Below are positions 24,020 through 36,178 of a stretch of DNA of 36,178 nt, in pieces. Under the pieces are notes generated by a model that did no database searches, had not been told where the DNA came from, and saw only the letters and a list, made by a program, of their open reading frames with translations. A program made the position numbers and the translations under genes. Each line of letters starts with the position of its first letter. The stretch's first letter is position 1. Source of the DNA: a virus (lineage: Duplodnaviria > Heunggongvirae > Uroviricota > Caudoviricetes); the IMG/VR virus record IMGVR_UViG_2695420793_000017. One strand, given 5' to 3'.

Positions 24020-25270
24020 TTATCGCCATTTTAGATAAAAAGCAAAAAATGGATCAGTAATATGCAACTTTCGGTCCTCCTTATCCCAATCTATTACAGG
24101 AGTTGAAGCTTCTTCCGTAGCAGCTATTTTAGCCATTTTTTCTATAACACGAGTAACCTCATGAGCTTGTGGAGGAGCATCTTGCACCAGTTCGCGTATG
24201 GCTGATCTTAACTCCTCATACTGAATACTTTGCATTCCTGGTTTCATATGTGACAATGCATATAATACAACTTTATATATATCTACTTCCTCACCACTTT
24301 TCAGTTTTCTAGGAATTCTGTCAGTTCGCTGATTAGGGCCACTAGCTAACTTATCAAATACTATTTTCCCAGTGGATTCTGCAACCTTTCTAAAAATATC
24401 ATCATCTAAAGAATTAATAACTAACTTACTCGGCAAAGTTTCTTTAACATTATTTACTAAGCATATAGCCTTGCAAAACTCTTGCATTAAATGAGGGCTT
24501 CCCAATGATTCATTGGCAATTTTATCAATTACTGAATCACTAACTTCCATGTTTAACAGAGGAAATCCCACTTTTGCTATTTGTTTTAGTTCATCCATTT
24601 CCCACGAAGGCATGGAAATATTTTCTAGCCGTCCGGTAATTTCTTTTTCAACTTTTACAGCATCATATCTTCGATGTGGAATGGCTATCAGTACAACTGG
24701 TACTCCATCAAAAACTAATGGTTTTATCGCTCTAATAAAGTTACCTTGTAGGTCACGATCAAGGTAATGAAAGTCATCAATTATAAGACTAGACTTGGTT
24801 TGAGAGAGAACTTTTAGTGCAGAACTTTTTGCGGATATCGTTCGCGATTTTTTATTACCATTTGACTTTCCATCCGTCTGAACTAAACCAGCCTCACCTG
24901 TACCTTTAACAACGAATGCACTTGCGGTCCCCGATACCTTACCACTAACTGCAATAGCACTATTTTCTCCAGAATTAACTTCAATACTATGGTAGCCATT
25001 TAGTTTTTCTAATACCTGCTCCCAAATATCATCTTCAGTTGTAATACTCCCACCGTCAATCCATACAACATCATCGTCCATAACTGGGAATACCATTCTT
25101 GTAATTACAGTCTTACCAGACTTTGTTTGCCCAGTTAAAGTCACTAACTTACATAAATTATCTTTAGCACTCTCCAGTTTTCCATGAACCTCTCCTTCAG
25201 AGCGCTCAACATAAGTCAATTTCGGCATACCGCCAGGCACAAAAACTTGTGAAGCACGTTGTTTATCCAT
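24020..25270 (-). CDS. P-loop NTPase of unknown function (accessory gene, candidate anti-phage defence)
   Basis: 416-aa ORF; Walker A GQTKSGKT and Walker B-like LIIDDFHYLDRD; visibly AT-rich versus neighbours; lies between cos and Q. Confidence 0.8.
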   Translation of the reverse strand: MDKQRASQVFVPGGMPKLTYVERSEGEVHGKLESAKDNLCKLVTLTGQTKSGKTVITRMVFPVMDDDVVWIDGGSITTEDDIWEQVLEKLNGYHSIEVNSGENSAIAVSGKVSGTASAFVVKGTGEAGLVQTDGKSNGNKKSRTISAKSSALKVLSQTKSSLIIDDFHYLDRDLQGNFIRAIKPLVFDGVPVVLIAIPHRRYDAVKVEKEITGRLENISMPSWEMDELKQIAKVGFPLLNMEVSDSVIDKIANESLGSPHLMQEFCKAICLVNNVKETLPSKLVINSLDDDIFRKVAESTGKIVFDKLASGPNQRTDRIPRKLKSGEEVDIYKVVLYALSHMKPGMQSIQYEELRSAIRELVQDAPPQAHEVTRVIEKMAKIAATEEASTPVIDWDKEDRKLHITDPFFAFYLKWR

Positions 25271-25378
25271 GAATACTTCCCAATTAACACAGTTCTAGTG
25301 AACTACGATTCTAAAATAACATCTGAGCTTGGACAATTAACATTACATGATTTGAGTATTCAAAGCCACAAGCGCGCG

Positions 25379-25397
25379 CTCGTATCCCCGCCACGCC
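25379..25397 (-). other. putative cos cohesive-end sequence
   Basis: minus strand reads GGCGTGGCGGGGATACGAG, matching the start of the P2/186 cohesive ends as I recall them; exact 3' part differs. Confidence 0.5.
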
Positions 25398-25776
25398 TGC
25401 CCGCTTTATGCAGTGGTTTTCATGCACATGCATGACATGAGCAAAAGCCCGCCAGTTCTGGCGGATCTGAGCAAAGACGATCCTCAATCGATCATGCGAT
25501 TTCATGCAGCATAGTCATGCACTGTCAAGGAAGTGAAAATCCGTATCTGAATGGCCACTTGAAAAACGGATCATACGGGTTTACAAAGATGAATGTTCGC
25601 TGTGAACGGGAAGCGGAAGTTAGCTTTCAGATAACATAATCCATATGCACGAGAACCTCTAAAATAGAATGGGACACCTAAGCGGGGTACTTACAACGAT
25701 TCTTTCCATATTCACAGTTAACACTCTGTTTGGCGTATTTTTATTCAAATAGCAAACACCAATAAAAGGAGTTTCC

Positions 25777-26112
25777 ATGAACAATATTCCCCCTATACCA
25801 CAGTTAGGAATTTATGTCTCAAAAATCGATCCCACCCTACGTATCACTGTAACCGATGTTGATATTGTTGATGGTGAGGATGATTCTCCTGATGATGAAT
25901 TGTTTTATTTAGTCCACTGGATCGAGGGGGAAGATGAAAGTGATATGACAGCAATGGGATTTGAGCTAGACCCAGTAGAGTGGCAGGCTTTCGTTGAATC
26001 TGAGCAATTAGTGTTTGAGCGTGATCCGTACATGGATTCAATCCCCGAAAATTCAAACTTGGCAAAGATTCGGGATTTTCTCATGAAGACTAAACAGAAT
26101 GATCATTCGTAA
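25777..26112 (+). CDS. highly acidic hypothetical protein (possible DNA mimic)
   Basis: 111-aa ORF; AAAGGAG Shine-Dalgarno 7 nt upstream; about 26 Asp/Glu versus about 7 Lys/Arg by hand count. Confidence 0.65.
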   Translation: MNNIPPIPQLGIYVSKIDPTLRITVTDVDIVDGEDDSPDDELFYLVHWIEGEDESDMTAMGFELDPVEWQAFVESEQLVFERDPYMDSIPENSNLAKIRDFLMKTKQNDHS

Positions 26113-26304
26113 GTGTAAGCATCCATCAGGAAAATGGTTTTGTAAGTGAATCATCAACTTTTAGAGAGTCTCAGACACTCCCACTTCTGCTTCTGACACA
26201 AAGCGGACGATCACTTATCAAAATAACCGCCCACCTTACGCCTTATTTCACTCATTGCCCAAACTAGCCCCCATCAGAATGAATCCTCCTGGGGGCCACG
26301 TTTC

Positions 26305-26538
26305 TTAATGCAGCCAGCTGTCGTCCTCCCACACCTTCTGCATAATTTTCATCACTTGTTTTCTTTCTTCATCCAGTTGCAGTCCGGTTAGTTCCACACC
26401 GTTAGAGCTACCTTTGCGAATGCGAATTACCGTTTTGGGATACAGGGGGCGCAGATTGCGGTAAAGCTCGGATTCAAGGGCGTCCAGGGTAGACTGGCTA
26501 ATCTTCTGCTCTTTATCGATCATTATTTCAATGCGCAT
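26305..26538 (-). CDS. DinI-family protein
   Basis: MRIEIMIDK...WEDDSWLH resembles E. coli DinI (MRIEVTIAK...WESADDWF) as recalled; start set at ATG 26538 with a GAGGTGA Shine-Dalgarno overlapping the upstream stop. Confidence 0.7.
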   Translation of the reverse strand: MRIEIMIDKEQKISQSTLDALESELYRNLRPLYPKTVIRIRKGSSNGVELTGLQLDEERKQVMKIMQKVWEDDSWLH

Positions 26539-26548
26539 AAAAGTCACC

Positions 26549-26737
26549 TCAGCTGATGACATCCATTGAGCGGTTGTATTCGTGACTTCTGATTTTTGCC
26601 ATAAGTTCATCAGTCAATTCAGAAACCCACTGCAGAGCCAGCCCCTTCTCTTCATCACTACACTCACTAGCCGCTACAAGCTTAAGAAAAAAATCAATGC
26701 GCTGAAGCTTCAAAGACTCCAAAAAATAGTCCTGCAT
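26549..26737 (-). CDS. small hypothetical protein, first gene of the LexA-box operon (possible Tum-like N-terminal module)
   Basis: 62-aa ORF with an AGGAGG Shine-Dalgarno; a LexA box lies about 45 nt upstream; translationally coupled to the dinI-like gene. Confidence 0.55.
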   Translation of the reverse strand: MQDYFLESLKLQRIDFFLKLVAASECSDEEKGLALQWVSELTDELMAKIRSHEYNRSMDVIS

Positions 26738-26777
26738 CTTTCCTCCTATGACACCAAAACAATACTGTATACATAAC

Positions 26778-26797
26778 CACTGTTTATATTTACAGTA
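26778..26797. promoter_or_regulatory. LexA box (SOS operator)
   Basis: cACTGTttatatttACAGta = CTGT-N8-ACAG with an AT-rich spacer, overlapping a candidate -10 for the minus-strand operon. Confidence 0.65.
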
Positions 26798-26889
26798 TAT
26801 AATAATCTTACTGATGTAAAACGTTTTTTTACGTTCATCGGCCTGATATGCCTGGTATTATTAAGAGCACGAATTGTTAACCCGCGTAA

Positions 26890-29304
26890 TTAATACAGGT
26901 TCCGCCACTTATCATCTTCCTTCAGACGCTGGTTCCGATAGAAGATACGCAGGCCTGCTCCTGACGGAATACTGCCGCCGCGAAGGAGCAAATCGACTTC
27001 TTTCTCGCTGCCATCAAATCCCCTGGACTTCAGTTCATAGACGAGCTGCTGTCGCTGATGGTCTGTAATTCGCTGTTTGTAGTCTTTACGCCGTTTCGGT
27101 TTCACCTGGCGTAACCTTGCAGCCAGTTCCCGGCGCTCTTTTTTGCTCATACTGTGCAGGTAATCGTGCAACTCCTTGTCATTCATACGGGTAATATCCG
27201 TTCTGGAGTCCCCATCAGCTGATTTGTCTTTCCCTTGTTGGTTCAAATTTTCAGCAAGGGGACAGTTATTGCCACGAGTCCAAGGGGCGCAAGCGCCCTG
27301 GTCGGCTGCCGCCTCCTGAACATCAACGGCCTTACGAACCATTTTCCACTTCACGGCATGAGTGCAGATCTTGCCCTCTGCAATAGGTGACCAGATGCCA
27401 TAAATACGAATGCCGTGATCGCCATAGGCGGTCGGCTCTTCGTTGATTTCATAAGCGGTTCTGATGAGGTGATATTTGCGGGGAACCAGTACGCCGCCCT
27501 GCTTCATGATGTAGGTGGCAAAACAACCAGCATCAGCAGCAGCCAGGATGGCATCAAGGCGTGGGTTATCCAGTACCGGCGCACCTGCTTTTTTGTCCCC
27601 CTGTTGCCTTGCCGCCTGACCAGCCAGCAATCGCAGTTCACGGTAAGCCTGACGCCCCGGAATGCCAAAGAAGCGGAATTGCTGAACACGATGCAGAGAC
27701 GCCCAGGCATTCACGTATTCAGCGTTATCACGCAGAGATTTACCCGTTTCCTTACTGATCTCGCCAGCCAGACCACGCCCGTCAATGTTCTTGCTGATAT
27801 ATTTCGCGATGTAGCTTGTCGGCGTTCCTTTGCGCGGGTTAATCAACTCAGACTTAAAGCGCGGCCCCGTGTTATTGCCCAGCTCCTCGCGGTCTTCACG
27901 AATGGCAAACTTACGCAACAAAGCAGTAATGGCGCGGCGATCTTTTTTGCGCATAAAACACAACAGGTGCCAGTGAACTGTACCGTCATGATGCGGCTCC
28001 GCCACCCGCACGCCATACCAGCGCAATCCGGATTTGTGCATAGCCTTACGAAATGCAGCAAACATGCCGACCAGATAATCGCTGCTTTGTCTTACTGTCG
28101 CGTTGGTCCAGGTCGGGTTTGGCCTGCCGTTATTTAGCGTGGAATGGAAACGTGACGGACAGGTGATGGTGTAGAAAACGGCGCAGTCACCACGCATTTC
28201 CGCGATAAGCTCCAGACCTTTAACGCAGGCCATCATCTCATTGCGGCGATGCGCCGGGTTGCTGCTGCTGGCGTTTACCACATCCTCCATGTCCAGCGTG
28301 TCGCCGTCTTCGTTCACCAGTTCATGAGAGCGGAAAAACTCCAGCGACTTACGGCGCTGCTCACGTTTATGCATCACGGCTTCATAGCTAACATAGGGAG
28401 ATGCTTTTTTGCTGACCAGACAAACAGCACGCAACTGCTCTTCCCGCCATTCGCAACGCATCTTCCATAATTTCCGATACCACCAGTCGGCGCACAGCAT
28501 ACGCGCCAGCGAACCCGGAATGAGTTCATAGGGCACAGGTTTGCGGCGGTTTCTTTTCCGGCGGAGTTGCTCAAACGCAGGCGGTATGACATCCAGTCGC
28601 AGGGTTTCTGCTGCCACCTTTTCCCATGTCTTGCGGATTTCTTCCGGCTTAACATCATCGGAGGCATACAAATCGCCACAAGCTGCATCAAGGCACATGC
28701 TCATATGCGCAGCAACAAGGGTGGACAGGCGTTTCACCTGATCCTGACTCATTTCAGGCAGAATCAGCAGGCCGTCCAGCCCTTCATGGCTTGCCATAAA
28801 GCGAAAAGAAGTGGATAGCTGACTGTCGCGTACATGCTCCAGCCGTTCCAGACATGGCTTAATCGTCTCACGCAAATAGCGGGAATAAGCCTTTGGCCTG
28901 CCCAGGCTGCTGAAGTATTCAATACGTTGCATCAGCGGCTTGCTGATATGGGAAGGCTGGGCGCTGACATCTGCCAGAATGACCATGTCCGGGTTAAAAC
29001 GCTGCTGTTCATGCGCCAGCTTTGCCCGGCTAATGAGCTTATCCTGCTCCATTTCGCGCTGGACAGGATCACGGGATTCATTAAAGAAATAACGTTCCCA
29101 GACCTGATCACTCAGTGCCTCGCGGCGGCGCTGTTCCTGCTCGTTATCAGCAGCGTACAGAGTGATCATGTTTGAAAGTGCAGACTCCGGCGCAACTTCC
29201 GCCGGTTCCAGATAAGGGTTAATGGCCTTTTTCGGGCCGTTCCATGAAAATGCTGCGGCAGCCTCGTTAAAGCCGCTAGAGTTGCTCATATCGTCATGAC
29301 TCAT
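26890..29304 (-). CDS. A: replication initiation protein A (rolling-circle nickase family)
   Basis: 804-aa ORF at the gpA position in the early operon. Confidence 0.8.
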
Positions 29305-33100: not shown

Positions 33101-34039
33101 ATGTCAACTCAAAAAAACACATTTCGCCATATTAGCGAGAGTCTAAAAACTTCAATAATGCAAAACCGTGGGGGACAGAAAGTAATTGAGCGTATACTTG
33201 CTGCGTATGGTTTTACTTCGCGGCAAGCATTTTGCAATCATCTGGGTATCTCACAAAGCACGATGGCTAACAGGTATGCTCGTGACACATTTCCTGCTGA
33301 CTGGGTGATAATTTGCAGTATAGAGACCGGCGCATCTATCGACTGGTTGGCATCGGGAATCAGCTGTGAATCATCCTCAGTTTTATTAAATGATGAACGT
33401 TTAGCCCATACCAAATCTGATGACCTGGATAGAACTAACTCAATAGCCCAAAAGTTCCCAATCGAGACCAGCATAAATCCTAATAAAGGAGGGAAGGCGG
33501 CAATTGATCGCTTAGTCGCAGCCTACGGCTTTAGCACCCGACAAGCCCTAGCAAACCATTTGCAGGTTTCAAAAAGCACTGTAGCAAACAGGTACTTACG
33601 AGACACGTTTCCTAGCGATTGGATCATTCAATGCGCTCTTGAAACAGGAACTTCATTACTCTGGCTCACAAACGGCAATGGCCCCAAATTTATCGATAAT
33701 TCCAGCTCTGTAGCCCAACTTAAACACCAAACAATCATTGACGGTAAATTACATGATGAAGGCTACTTAGCATTTGACAAGACGCTTATACCTTCCGGAT
33801 TGAAAAAACCTATTGGAGTTACCGCAGAAGGAAAAACCTTTATTGCAGATACAGAATATGATGATGTTTCAGATGGTAGTTGGTTGATTGAGATTGAAGG
33901 TAAAGTAAGTTTAAGAAAATTAACAAGAATTCCAGTTGGAAAAGTAAAAATCACATCAGATACAACTGATTTTGTTTGTAAGCTTGAAGACATTACAACC
34001 ATCGCAAAATGTTGTTGCGTTTTTTCAAAGGAAATTTAA
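33101..34039 (+). CDS. cI: CI-like immunity repressor with a tandemly duplicated N-terminal DNA-binding domain
   Basis: 312-aa ORF; two homologous modules (...ERILAAYGF.SRQAFCNHLGISQSTMANRYARDTFPADW... and ...DRLVAAYGFSTRQALANHLQVSKSTVANRYLRDTFPSDW...) followed by a C-terminal domain. Confidence 0.75.
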   Translation: MSTQKNTFRHISESLKTSIMQNRGGQKVIERILAAYGFTSRQAFCNHLGISQSTMANRYARDTFPADWVIICSIETGASIDWLASGISCESSSVLLNDERLAHTKSDDLDRTNSIAQKFPIETSINPNKGGKAAIDRLVAAYGFSTRQALANHLQVSKSTVANRYLRDTFPSDWIIQCALETGTSLLWLTNGNGPKFIDNSSSVAQLKHQTIIDGKLHDEGYLAFDKTLIPSGLKKPIGVTAEGKTFIADTEYDDVSDGSWLIEIEGKVSLRKLTRIPVGKVKITSDTTDFVCKLEDITTIAKCCCVFSKEI

Positions 34040-35039: not shown

Positions 35040-35074
35040 GGCCAATGTTTATTTCACCCTAAACATACATTGAT

Positions 35075-35094
35075 AACTGTTTAAATATACAGTT
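35075..35094. promoter_or_regulatory. LexA-box-like palindrome upstream of int
   Basis: aACTGTttaaatatACAGtt = CTGT-N8-ACAG; function uncertain. Confidence 0.35.
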
Positions 35095-35100
35095 AAATTT

Positions 35101-35125
35101 AGCCCTCTGATATGAGGGCTTTTTT
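35101..35125 (+). terminator. rho-independent terminator abutting the int start
   Basis: AGCCCTC-tgatat-GAGGGCT hairpin followed by TTTTT immediately before the int ATG at 35126. Confidence 0.55.
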
Positions 35126-36178
35126 ATGGCAGTACGAAAACTCACCACAGGAAAATGGCTTTGCGAATGTTACCCTGCCGGACGTAGTGGACGTCGTGTG
35201 CGTAAACAATTCGCCACCAAAGGCGAAGCTCTGGCTTTTGAGCGTCACACGATGGAAGAAACCGAAGCAAAACCCTGGCTGGGTGAATCAGTGGATCGTC
35301 GAACACTGAAAGACGTGGTTGAACTATGGTTCAAACTACATGGTAAATCTCTGACAGCTGGGCAGCATGTCTATGACAAATTGCTGTTGATGGTTGACGC
35401 TCTGGGAAATCCCATTGCAACCGATCTCACCTCTAAAATGTTTGCCCACTATCGAGATAAACGCCTGACAGGAGAGATCTACTTCAGCGAAAAATGGAAG
35501 AAAGGAGCAAGCCCGGTCACCATTAACCTGGAGCAAAGCTATCTTAGTAGTGTTTTTAGCGAACTATCCCGCCTGGGCGAATGGTCGTATCCGAACCCAC
35601 TGGAGAACATGCGAAAATTCACCATCGCAGAAAAAGAGATGGCATGGCTTACCCATGAGCAGATTGTTGAATTACTGGCTGATTGCAAACGTCAGGACCC
35701 AATTCTGGCACTGGTAGTTAAGATATGCTTAAGCACAGGCGCACGCTGGCGTGAAGCTGTAAATCTTACCCGCTCACAGGTGACCAAATACCGAATTACC
35801 TTTGTAAGAACGAAGGGGAAGAAAAACAGAAGCATCCCTATCAGTAAAGAACTTTACGAAGAGATCATGGCGCTTGATGGGTTCAATTTCTTCACAGACT
35901 GCTATTTTCAATTTTTATCTGTGATGGGAAAAACGTCTATCGTGCTCCCTCGCGGTCAACTGACACACGTTCTGCGCCATACGTTTGCGGCGCATTTCAT
36001 GATGTCGGGTGGAAATATCCTTGCTTTGCAAAAAATCCTCGGACATCACGACATAAAAATGACTATGCGTTACGCACATCTGGCACCGGATCATCTGGAA
36101 ACGGCGCTCCGTTTCAATCCTCTGGCAACGCTGCCAAGTGGCGACAAAGTGGCGGCAGCGGTTGGCATTACCCCGTAA
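35126..36178 (+). CDS. int: tyrosine integrase (P2/186 type)
   Basis: 350-aa ORF; C-terminal ...HVLRHTFA...GHHDIKMTMRYAHL fits the tyrosine recombinase catalytic region; stop is the last codon of the window. Confidence 0.85.
   Translation: MAVRKLTTGKWLCECYPAGRSGRRVRKQFATKGEALAFERHTMEETEAKPWLGESVDRRTLKDVVELWFKLHGKSLTAGQHVYDKLLLMVDALGNPIATDLTSKMFAHYRDKRLTGEIYFSEKWKKGASPVTINLEQSYLSSVFSELSRLGEWSYPNPLENMRKFTIAEKEMAWLTHEQIVELLADCKRQDPILALVVKICLSTGARWREAVNLTRSQVTKYRITFVRTKGKKNRSIPISKELYEEIMALDGFNFFTDCYFQFLSVMGKTSIVLPRGQLTHVLRHTFAAHFMMSGGNILALQKILGHHDIKMTMRYAHLAPDHLETALRFNPLATLPSGDKVAAAVGITP
36140..36160. repeat. putative attL core (GGCGACAAAGTGGCGGCAGCG) inside the int 3' end
   Basis: 20/21 identical to 2835-2855. 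Confidence 0.5.

Follow-up and report, generated by a model that had tools for sequence, protein, structure and literature searches.

The question raised by this locus is whether the short minus-strand segment between gene A and cos of a P2/186-like prophage encodes an SOS-controlled induction switch and, if it does, whether that switch is a natural pair of genes or the wreck of a single one. The window analysed here is the whole stretch of 36,178 nucleotides held in the IMG/VR virus record IMGVR_UViG_2695420793_000017; the original prediction, made from the letters alone, described a two-gene operon controlled by a LexA box and ending in a DinI-like protein, to be understood either as two proteins or as a frameshifted tum. 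We put the probability at about 0.9 that the module is an SOS operon in its split tumA-tumB form, belonging to a P2-like Escherichia coli prophage of the Fels-2/186 type; the operon is real and almost certainly functional.

The published background for such a module is substantial. Tum of phage 186 is an antirepressor fused to a DinI-like half, and tum is split in two in Fels-2 and PSP3, where antirepressor activity has been placed in the upstream PSP3 gene (PMC3121763); among split-form proteins, the product of that gene, PSP3 TumA, is alone in having been credited with this activity in the literature. According to a passage of the same paper that cites Shearwin et al. 1998, Tum of 186 binds CI and prevents operator binding, and a further passage, citing Bunny, Liu and Roth 2002, has lexA null mutations lethal through Fels-2. 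More recently, in the prophage DuoHS of E. coli HS, either deletion of 'tum' or a lexA(Ind-) allele was found to abolish mitomycin C induction, mitomycin C-induced lysis and virion foci (PMC12055606), the deleted gene being locus tag ECHS_RS04495 (PMC12055606 supplement). ECHS_RS04495 is a 62-aa gene whose product is 100% identical to the 62-aa ORF of the window, and the DNA of the two modules is 97% identical.

The genomic setting agrees with that of the known modules. The stretch is a prophage of E. coli, P2/186-like (Peduoviridae) and of the Fels-2/186 type, with portal and terminase genes on its left side and, to the right of gene A, genes for a Dam methylase, CII (PF06892), a 186-type CI and an integrase. 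In the E. coli lineage, a second LexA-like box precedes int. The interval of interest is bounded by two features:

26890..29304, minus strand: gene A, encoding the gpA-type replicase, with its stop at 26890
25379..25397, minus strand: cos, the 19-nt cohesive-end sequence GGCGTGGCGGGGATACGAG, identical to 186 cos at 15 of 19 positions and ending the A-to-cos interval

We located cos by comparing the window directly with both ends of the 186 record: the junction CATAAAGCGGGCA|GGCGTGGCGGGGATACGAG matches the joined ends of that record, and the flanks also agree with 186 (CATAAAG(C/T)GGGCA on one side, GGCGTGGCGGGGA... on the other). A P2 cos sequence used as a query gave no match within 3 mismatches, and an Rfam search of positions 25200-27000 returned no RNA family. 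The tum module lies on the minus strand just downstream of gene A, between A and cos, so that the predicted equivalence of its place with that of tum in 186 is borne out. The 651 bases around it are 100% identical to several E. coli chromosomes.

The regulatory region upstream of the 62-aa ORF comprises a promoter and two LexA boxes, as follows:

26815..26830, minus strand: upstream part of the promoter, an A7 tract (26830..26824) followed by the -35 hexamer TTTACA (26820..26815)
26792..26797, minus strand: -10 hexamer TACTGT, 17 nt downstream of TTTACA and forming the left arm of LexA box 1
26797..26778, minus strand: LexA box 1 (distal), TACTGTAAATATAAACAGTG, with its CTGT-N8-ACAG core at 26795..26780 and 17 of 20 positions agreeing with the consensus
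26782..26763, minus strand: LexA box 2 (proximal), CAGTGGTTATGTATACAGTA, with its GTG-N10-CAG core GTGGTTATGTATACAG at 26780..26765

The layout of TTTACA, 17 nt and TACTGT reproduces p95 of 186 and is kept across related loci; TACTGT is itself the hexamer annotated as the -10 of p95, where it likewise forms the left arm of a LexA site. A box overlapping the promoter of the 62-aa ORF, as had been proposed, is therefore what the sequence holds, and the A7 tract may act in the manner of an UP element, which it resembles. A generic promoter scan called no promoter at the tum module, because TACTGT agrees with TATAAT at only 3 of 6 positions. Taken alone, the CTGT-N8-ACAG motif is weak evidence for a LexA box: the whole window contains two such cores where 0.5 would be expected by chance, and at least two occurred in 8 of 100 shuffles of the window. 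The canonical box that the original prediction placed at 26778-26797 is nonetheless present there, and all 23 distinct long-leader promoters of related loci carry a box, as CTG-N10-CAG, at the corresponding position. In an anchored comparison of those 23 distinct upstream regions, conservation peaks at the A-tract, TTTTACA, TATACTGT, TATAAACAGTGG and TATA-ATACAGT and is low elsewhere.

What had been taken for a single LexA box proved to be two, with an overlap of one base. The second, box 2 (left arm GTGG), is kept in 19 of the 23 distinct long-leader loci; one box only is found in 186, in PSP3 and in a short-leader variant of Erwiniaceae. The 38-nt operator agrees at 34 of 37 positions with the DNA immediately preceding the small-plasmid genes cya (colicin Y) and pst (pesticin), a likeness that includes the bases just after box 2, and by this resemblance boxes 1 and 2 together read as a colicin-type double SOS operator. 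The colicin and pesticin promoters share with the window two LexA boxes that overlap by one base; in the Col plasmids, however, the boxes lie downstream of a TTGACA-type promoter, whereas in the window box 1 itself carries the -10 hexamer, and the genes that follow are not related. In colicin promoters, double boxes of this kind accommodate two LexA dimers and repress very tightly (PMC2994835). LexA probably binds both boxes of the window, in the case of box 2 to judge from its likeness to the colicin operators, and a high damage threshold for induction of this prophage may follow by the same analogy.

The first gene of the operon has the strong Shine-Dalgarno sequence that had been noted for it:

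26747..26742, minus strand: Shine-Dalgarno AGGAGG of tumA, 4 nt before the ATG at 26737
26549..26737, minus strand: tumA, 62 aa, homologous to the N-terminal half of Tum and hence a putative antirepressor

The (T)AGGAGG sequence is kept in nearly all related loci. Alignment to 186 Tum, which had been proposed as the means of checking the identity of both ORFs, succeeded for the DinI-like ORF by pairwise comparison and for the 62-aa ORF by profile: pairwise BLASTP found no similarity of the latter to 186 Tum or to PSP3 TumA, nor, likewise, of PSP3 TumA to 186 Tum. In PHROG profile searches the window protein belongs to phrog_698 (5.9e-38) and also matches phrog_8554 and phrog_1993; 186 Tum matches phrog_1993 (1e-22), phrog_8554 and phrog_698 (2.4e-5; residues 7-44 on profile positions 7-44), and PSP3 TumA is phrog_1993. 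With hhalign, a TumA profile built from 28 diverse family members aligned to 186 Tum at 94.9% probability (E 4.5e-8), residues 3-44 to 3-44 and in register; its match to PSP3 TumA was weak (E 0.004, probability 8.6%). All three proteins (window TumA, 186 Tum and PSP3 TumA) have in common the motif C-x6-[IL]AL-x-[LW][IV]x[DE][IL]. These profiles support homology of the 62-aa ORF with the N-terminal half of Tum. Among closer relatives, window TumA is 97% identical to STM2728 of Fels-2, besides its full identity with ECHS_RS04495.

Structural and domain searches add little to the profile evidence. An AF2 model of TumA is a two-helix hairpin (pLDDT 88; helices 2-23 and 28-61), for which Foldseek returned generic helical hairpins only, all at E > 0.8; no solved structure matches the TumA profile, Pfam holds no family for TumA (its sole match, at E 0.095, is one of chance) and PADLOC has no TumA entry. 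The conservation of TumA, its promoter and its operator indicates that all three are intact and under evident purifying selection.

The second gene and its surroundings required more correction of the earlier description. The relevant features are:

26543..26560, minus strand: tumA-tumB junction, with the tumA TGA stop at 26551..26549 and the tumB Shine-Dalgarno GAGGTG at 26550..26545
26305..26538, minus strand: tumB, 77 aa (MRIEIM...), of the DinI family
26267..26297, minus strand: GC-rich hairpin (GGCCCCCA...TGGGGGC) with TAGTTT behind it, directly beyond the tumB stop; a candidate operon terminator, probably weak

The DinI assignment of the second ORF was correct; its start was not. It had been placed at ATG 26610, giving a 101-aa ORF and a 26549-26610 overlap with the first gene, which turn out to be the product of mechanical upstream extension: the true start is ATG 26538, in agreement with the Fels-2 annotation, the start of E. 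coli DinI and the limits of the Pfam domain, and the two genes do not overlap, 10 nt separating the tumA stop from the tumB ATG, with GAGGTG spanning the tumA TGA. TumB matches Pfam DinI (PF06183) over residues 14-76 at 6.6e-23 (81.3 bits, cut-off 24.2) and E. coli DinI (PDB 1GHH) over residues 1-75, its full length, at E 2.7e-6; its C-terminus carries the acidic motif WEDDSW. Its identity is 78% to PSP3 TumB and 41% to residues 71-145 of 186 Tum, so that the proposed kinship of the C-terminal part of Tum with DinI also holds. Membership of this family suggests that TumB binds RecA filaments, and TumB is presumed to be a modulator of those filaments and of the SOS response.

A small hairpin at the junction (GTCATC-AGCTGA-GGTGAC, 26560..26543), the only one called here by the promoter and terminator scan, puts the tumB Shine-Dalgarno in its 3' arm. 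Because it is kept in the close relatives Fels-2 and E. coli HS and not in more distant loci, coupling of tumB to tumA through this hairpin is only a suggestion. Beyond the tumB stop, the 81-nt segment 26240-26320, which contains the GC-rich hairpin, folds at -27.7 kcal/mol (z -2.3); the terminator scan did not call this hairpin, because of its long loop and poor T-run. The similarity to Fels-2 and E. coli HS stops at the tumB stop, after which the window has the hairpin and then an unrelated 111-aa gene on the opposite strand, with no orf97.

Comparison with described systems places the module most closely beside Fels-2 (STM2728 and STM2726.1) and DuoHS (ECHS_RS04495 and ECHS_RS04500), which have the same promoter, double operator, two ORFs, 10-nt junction and place after gene A; over the promoter and both genes, nucleotide identity is 96% to Fels-2 and 97% to DuoHS. 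The Fels-2 record annotates a hypothetical protein and a 'DinI family protein similar to TumB of PSP3'. These two relatives differ from the window in having an orf97-like gene after tumB, where the window has its hairpin and opposite-strand gene, and in their CI proteins, of 210 aa (Fels-2) and 189 aa (E. coli HS) with a single HTH each, as against 312 aa and a double HTH in the window. PSP3 shares the split, its genes being annotated tumA ('UV induction of prophage') and tumB (dinI homologue) with a LexA box before tumA; its TumA, however, is of another subfamily (phrog_1993), related to that of the window through the shared motif and weak profile match only, with no BLASTP similarity, and in PSP3 only one LexA box precedes the two genes, which lie 3 nt apart.

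The 186 locus (p95 - tum - orf97) resembles the window in its LexA box overlapping the -10 TACTGT, its A-to-cos location, the homology of the N-terminal part of Tum to TumA and of the C-terminal DinI-like part to TumB, and the presence in the prophage of a 186-type CI with an Apl and CII switch. It differs in making one 146-aa protein, plus shorter in-frame DinI-like products, where the window has two ORFs with a stop and 10 nt between them, in having a single LexA box, and in having orf97, absent in the window, after tum. Since the antirepressor and DinI parts lie on separate ORFs, we class the module as the split form and not as 186 tum itself. The Gifsy dinI-gfoA/gftA operons of Salmonella are likewise LexA-repressed and pair a small antirepressor with a DinI homologue, which is dispensable for induction there (PMC3121763); they differ in placing dinI first, in belonging to lambdoid phages and in their unrelated antirepressor and repressor families.

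The alternative that the two ORFs are debris of a single ancestral 146-aa Tum, broken by mutation or by a sequencing error, is suggested by the single polypeptide of 186 and by the different frames of the ORFs in the window; we give it almost no credence. With this same layout, the tum module is present in 1124 of the 5426 complete E. coli genomes, and two ORFs are also found in Fels-2, PSP3 and many Klebsiella phages. A scan using one genome per species found 33 loci from other Enterobacterales species (spanning Escherichia, Citrobacter, Enterobacter, Klebsiella, Raoultella, Kluyvera, Serratia, Pantoea, Erwinia, Tatumella and other genera), in 30 of which TumA is a separate 62-aa ORF; where tumB follows, tumA may end in TGA, TAA or TAG, 8-12 nt separate the two genes, and they can stand in relative frame 0, 1 or 2. 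A search of 1.84 billion proteins gave 67 library representatives matching TumA at E <= 0.001, nearly all of them stand-alone proteins of 55-75 aa. Moreover, tumB has its own Shine-Dalgarno and ATG and begins where E. coli DinI begins, and deletion of the 62-aa gene alone leaves the E. coli HS prophage non-inducible (PMC12055606). We accordingly rejected the frameshift or sequencing-error reading on the conservation of the layout across species and E. coli genomes; of the two alternatives originally offered, that of two proteins stands, and the sequence comparisons identify a natural two-gene arrangement with no frameshift. A read-through TumA-TumB fusion was also considered: the two genes share a frame in some loci, yet frames vary, so there is no conserved fusion product. 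From about a dozen of the 33 loci tumB is missing, and in four it is truncated, with tumA intact there; TumB is thus often lost and appears dispensable.

Two further alternatives accept the split operon and concern the target of TumA, presumed to be the CI of the prophage:

33101..34039, plus strand: cI, 312 aa, 186-type immunity repressor and presumed TumA target, with PF07022 twice and PF16452

The N-terminal HTH domain of this protein is tandemly duplicated, a doubling seen in no other CI of the 30 prophages compared. By one alternative, the module is intact but mismatched, TumA having recombined in with the A-cos segment and being blind to the resident CI, so that the prophage would not be SOS-inducible through TumA. 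The double HTH speaks for this, as do the low identities of the window CI to those of Fels-2 (39%) and E. coli HS (46%), whose TumA proteins are 97-100% identical to that of the window, and the mosaic nature of P2-like prophages, here visible in the end of Fels-2 similarity right after tumB. We nevertheless think it improbable. Identical TumA proteins accompany CIs with only 58-62% N-terminal and 26-37% C-terminal identity in many species, and the pairing in the window is therefore the rule and no exception; each HTH copy keeps the motifs common to all compared CIs, and TumA, promoter and operator are intact and evidently under purifying selection. By the other alternative, TumA induces through a target other than CI, for example another lysogeny factor or a host protein, homology with Tum not necessarily meaning CI binding. 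Across 29 prophages, the identities of TumA and CI are indeed uncorrelated (Mantel r = 0.00 with the N-terminal and -0.10 with the C-terminal domain of CI), whereas the two CI domains co-vary with each other (r = 0.45, p = 0.0005), and the published deletion establishes a requirement for tumA and says nothing on its binding partner (PMC12055606). Against this stand the annotation of 186 Tum (NC_001317) and its citation in a passage of PMC3121763 as binding CI and blocking operator binding, the register of TumA with the N-terminal part of Tum, and the presence of a CI with a Fels-2-class N-terminal domain in 27 of 28 related prophages (the exception, L027, has a 186-like CI); a conserved CI surface would also explain the absent co-variation. 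A target other than CI seems to us very unlikely.

A specific binding partner of CI would be expected to co-vary with it, which TumA does not do. Either TumA binds a surface shared by these CIs or CI is not what it acts on directly, and the first fits the 186 precedent better; direct binding of CI by TumA is accordingly how we would read the pairing. A more speculative extension, which we hold only tentatively and think rather doubtful as a whole, is that TumA of the Fels-2 group is an immunity-independent, 'universal' antirepressor that acts on a surface shared by the N-terminal domains of all 186-type CIs and could induce heteroimmune P2-like prophages in the same cell, with the colicin-like double operator setting a high damage threshold and the LexA-like box of int providing an SOS-driven supply of integrase.

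Taken with the preferred reading, in which the split tumA-tumB operon is the SOS switch of the prophage, these observations suggest a simple course of events. In an undamaged cell, LexA on the double overlapping operator would cover the -10 and the transcription start and keep the operon silent; upon DNA damage, RecA-stimulated cleavage of LexA would free the promoter and TumA would be made. By homology with the N-terminal half of Tum, TumA would then bind the 186-type CI and end its hold on the lytic promoter, leading to lytic growth, and TumB, from its gene 10 nt downstream, would most likely bind RecA filaments and tune the SOS signal. By analogy with E. coli HS, inducibility of the window prophage by mitomycin C would be expected, though the CI differs (46% identity); because the window CI is so distinct, with its 312 aa and two HTH domains, the E. 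coli HS result may not carry over directly. The original proposal of a Tum-like SOS-induction module is thus supported by homology, by the 186-type CI, by the A-to-cos place and by the E. coli HS deletion of a gene for the identical protein (PMC12055606).

The split tum is already known, having been described for Fels-2 and PSP3 since 2002-2011, with the identical gene deleted in E. coli HS in 2025, and the module by itself brings no new biology. The additions made here, by-products of modest value, are the double overlapping SOS box, the frequent loss of TumB and the absence of TumA-CI co-variation. A double operator of the colicin type suggests that SOS control of induction is very tight and late, and the lack of co-variation suggests cross-induction among heteroimmune P2-like prophages. 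Given the module, DNA damage can be expected to induce this prophage, and so can the damage caused by antibiotics such as fluoroquinolones and trimethoprim, and the same module is present in about a fifth of complete E. coli genomes.

Beyond the double operator that precedes tumA, the window carries a second LexA-like box, AACTGTTTAAATATACAGTT, which matches the consensus at 16 of 20 positions and lies 5' of the integrase gene, in a part of the prophage laid out as follows:

33101-34039, + strand: CI repressor, matched twice by PF07022
34050-35039, + strand: inserted gene between cI and int, encoding a 329-aa protein
35070-35125, + strand: int-upstream region with the LexA-like box (int itself at 35126-36178)

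The box falls between the two hexamers of a promoter-like TTGATA...TAAATT, whose spacer is 18 nt long, and a hairpin followed by T6 lies 3' of the box, immediately ahead of the int ATG. The same layout recurs in E. coli HS, an Escherichia sp., phage vB_EcoM-813R9 and E. coli L725, and the substitutions among these relatives leave both CTG-N10-CAG and the pairing of the stem intact. We found the region in 350 of 5426 E. coli genomes; among the related loci compared, it was found neither in Fels-2 nor in those from outside Escherichia. This element may serve as an SOS-inducible promoter of the integrase gene. The neighboring 329-aa protein gives weak Pfam matches to Rod_CreS (a crescentin coiled-coil rod) and DUF2207_C (a predicted membrane-protein domain) and has no match among defence families; relatives carry another gene, DUF4041, at this spot between cI and int.

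Variable genes are also found next to tumA and around cos. The DinI-like gene tumB is absent or truncated in roughly half of the related prophages (loci L009, L010, L012, L020, L021, L023, L024 and L029-L038 of our tumA-bearing set from other Enterobacterales), which retain an intact tumA, with variable cargo found 3' of it. Judged by eye, this cargo seems to include genes for a UmuD-like protein (L021), a protein resembling cytosine methyltransferases (L029) and an NTPase (L031). Around cos, the window itself contains:

24020-25270, - strand: AAA-type ATPase (AAA_22), 416 aa, between cos and the portal gene
25311-25505, - strand: 64-aa ORF MKSHDRLRIVFA..., overlapping the conserved cos region (25379-25397)
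25777-26112, + strand: acidic protein of 111 aa in phrog_17127, a family of unknown function; strand opposite to the tum operon

The 416-aa ATPase has a match at 2.4e-31 to PDC-S59, one of the candidate defence families of PADLOC, and is probably an anti-phage cargo gene of the variable region adjacent to cos. Many related loci share the 64-aa ORF, but because it overlaps the conserved cos region, its conservation more likely reflects the packaging site than a protein. The 111-aa protein occupies the position that orf97 holds in 186, Fels-2 and E. coli HS.

The immunity repressor, presumed target of TumA, also varies. CI of the window comprises two 186-type HTH domains in tandem (59% identical to each other) and a single C-terminal domain, an architecture seen in no other CI of the 30-prophage comparison. 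In several Klebsiella phages, however, CI likewise has 312 aa and is 50-54% identical to that of the window. In Pantoea stewartii ATCC 8199 (locus L027), a Fels-2-type TumA, 84% identical to that of the window, occurs together with a 186-like CI, which is 62-64% identical to 186 CI versus only ~43% to the N-terminal domain of Fels-2 CI. This locus presents the strongest case for an uncoupling of TumA from CI.
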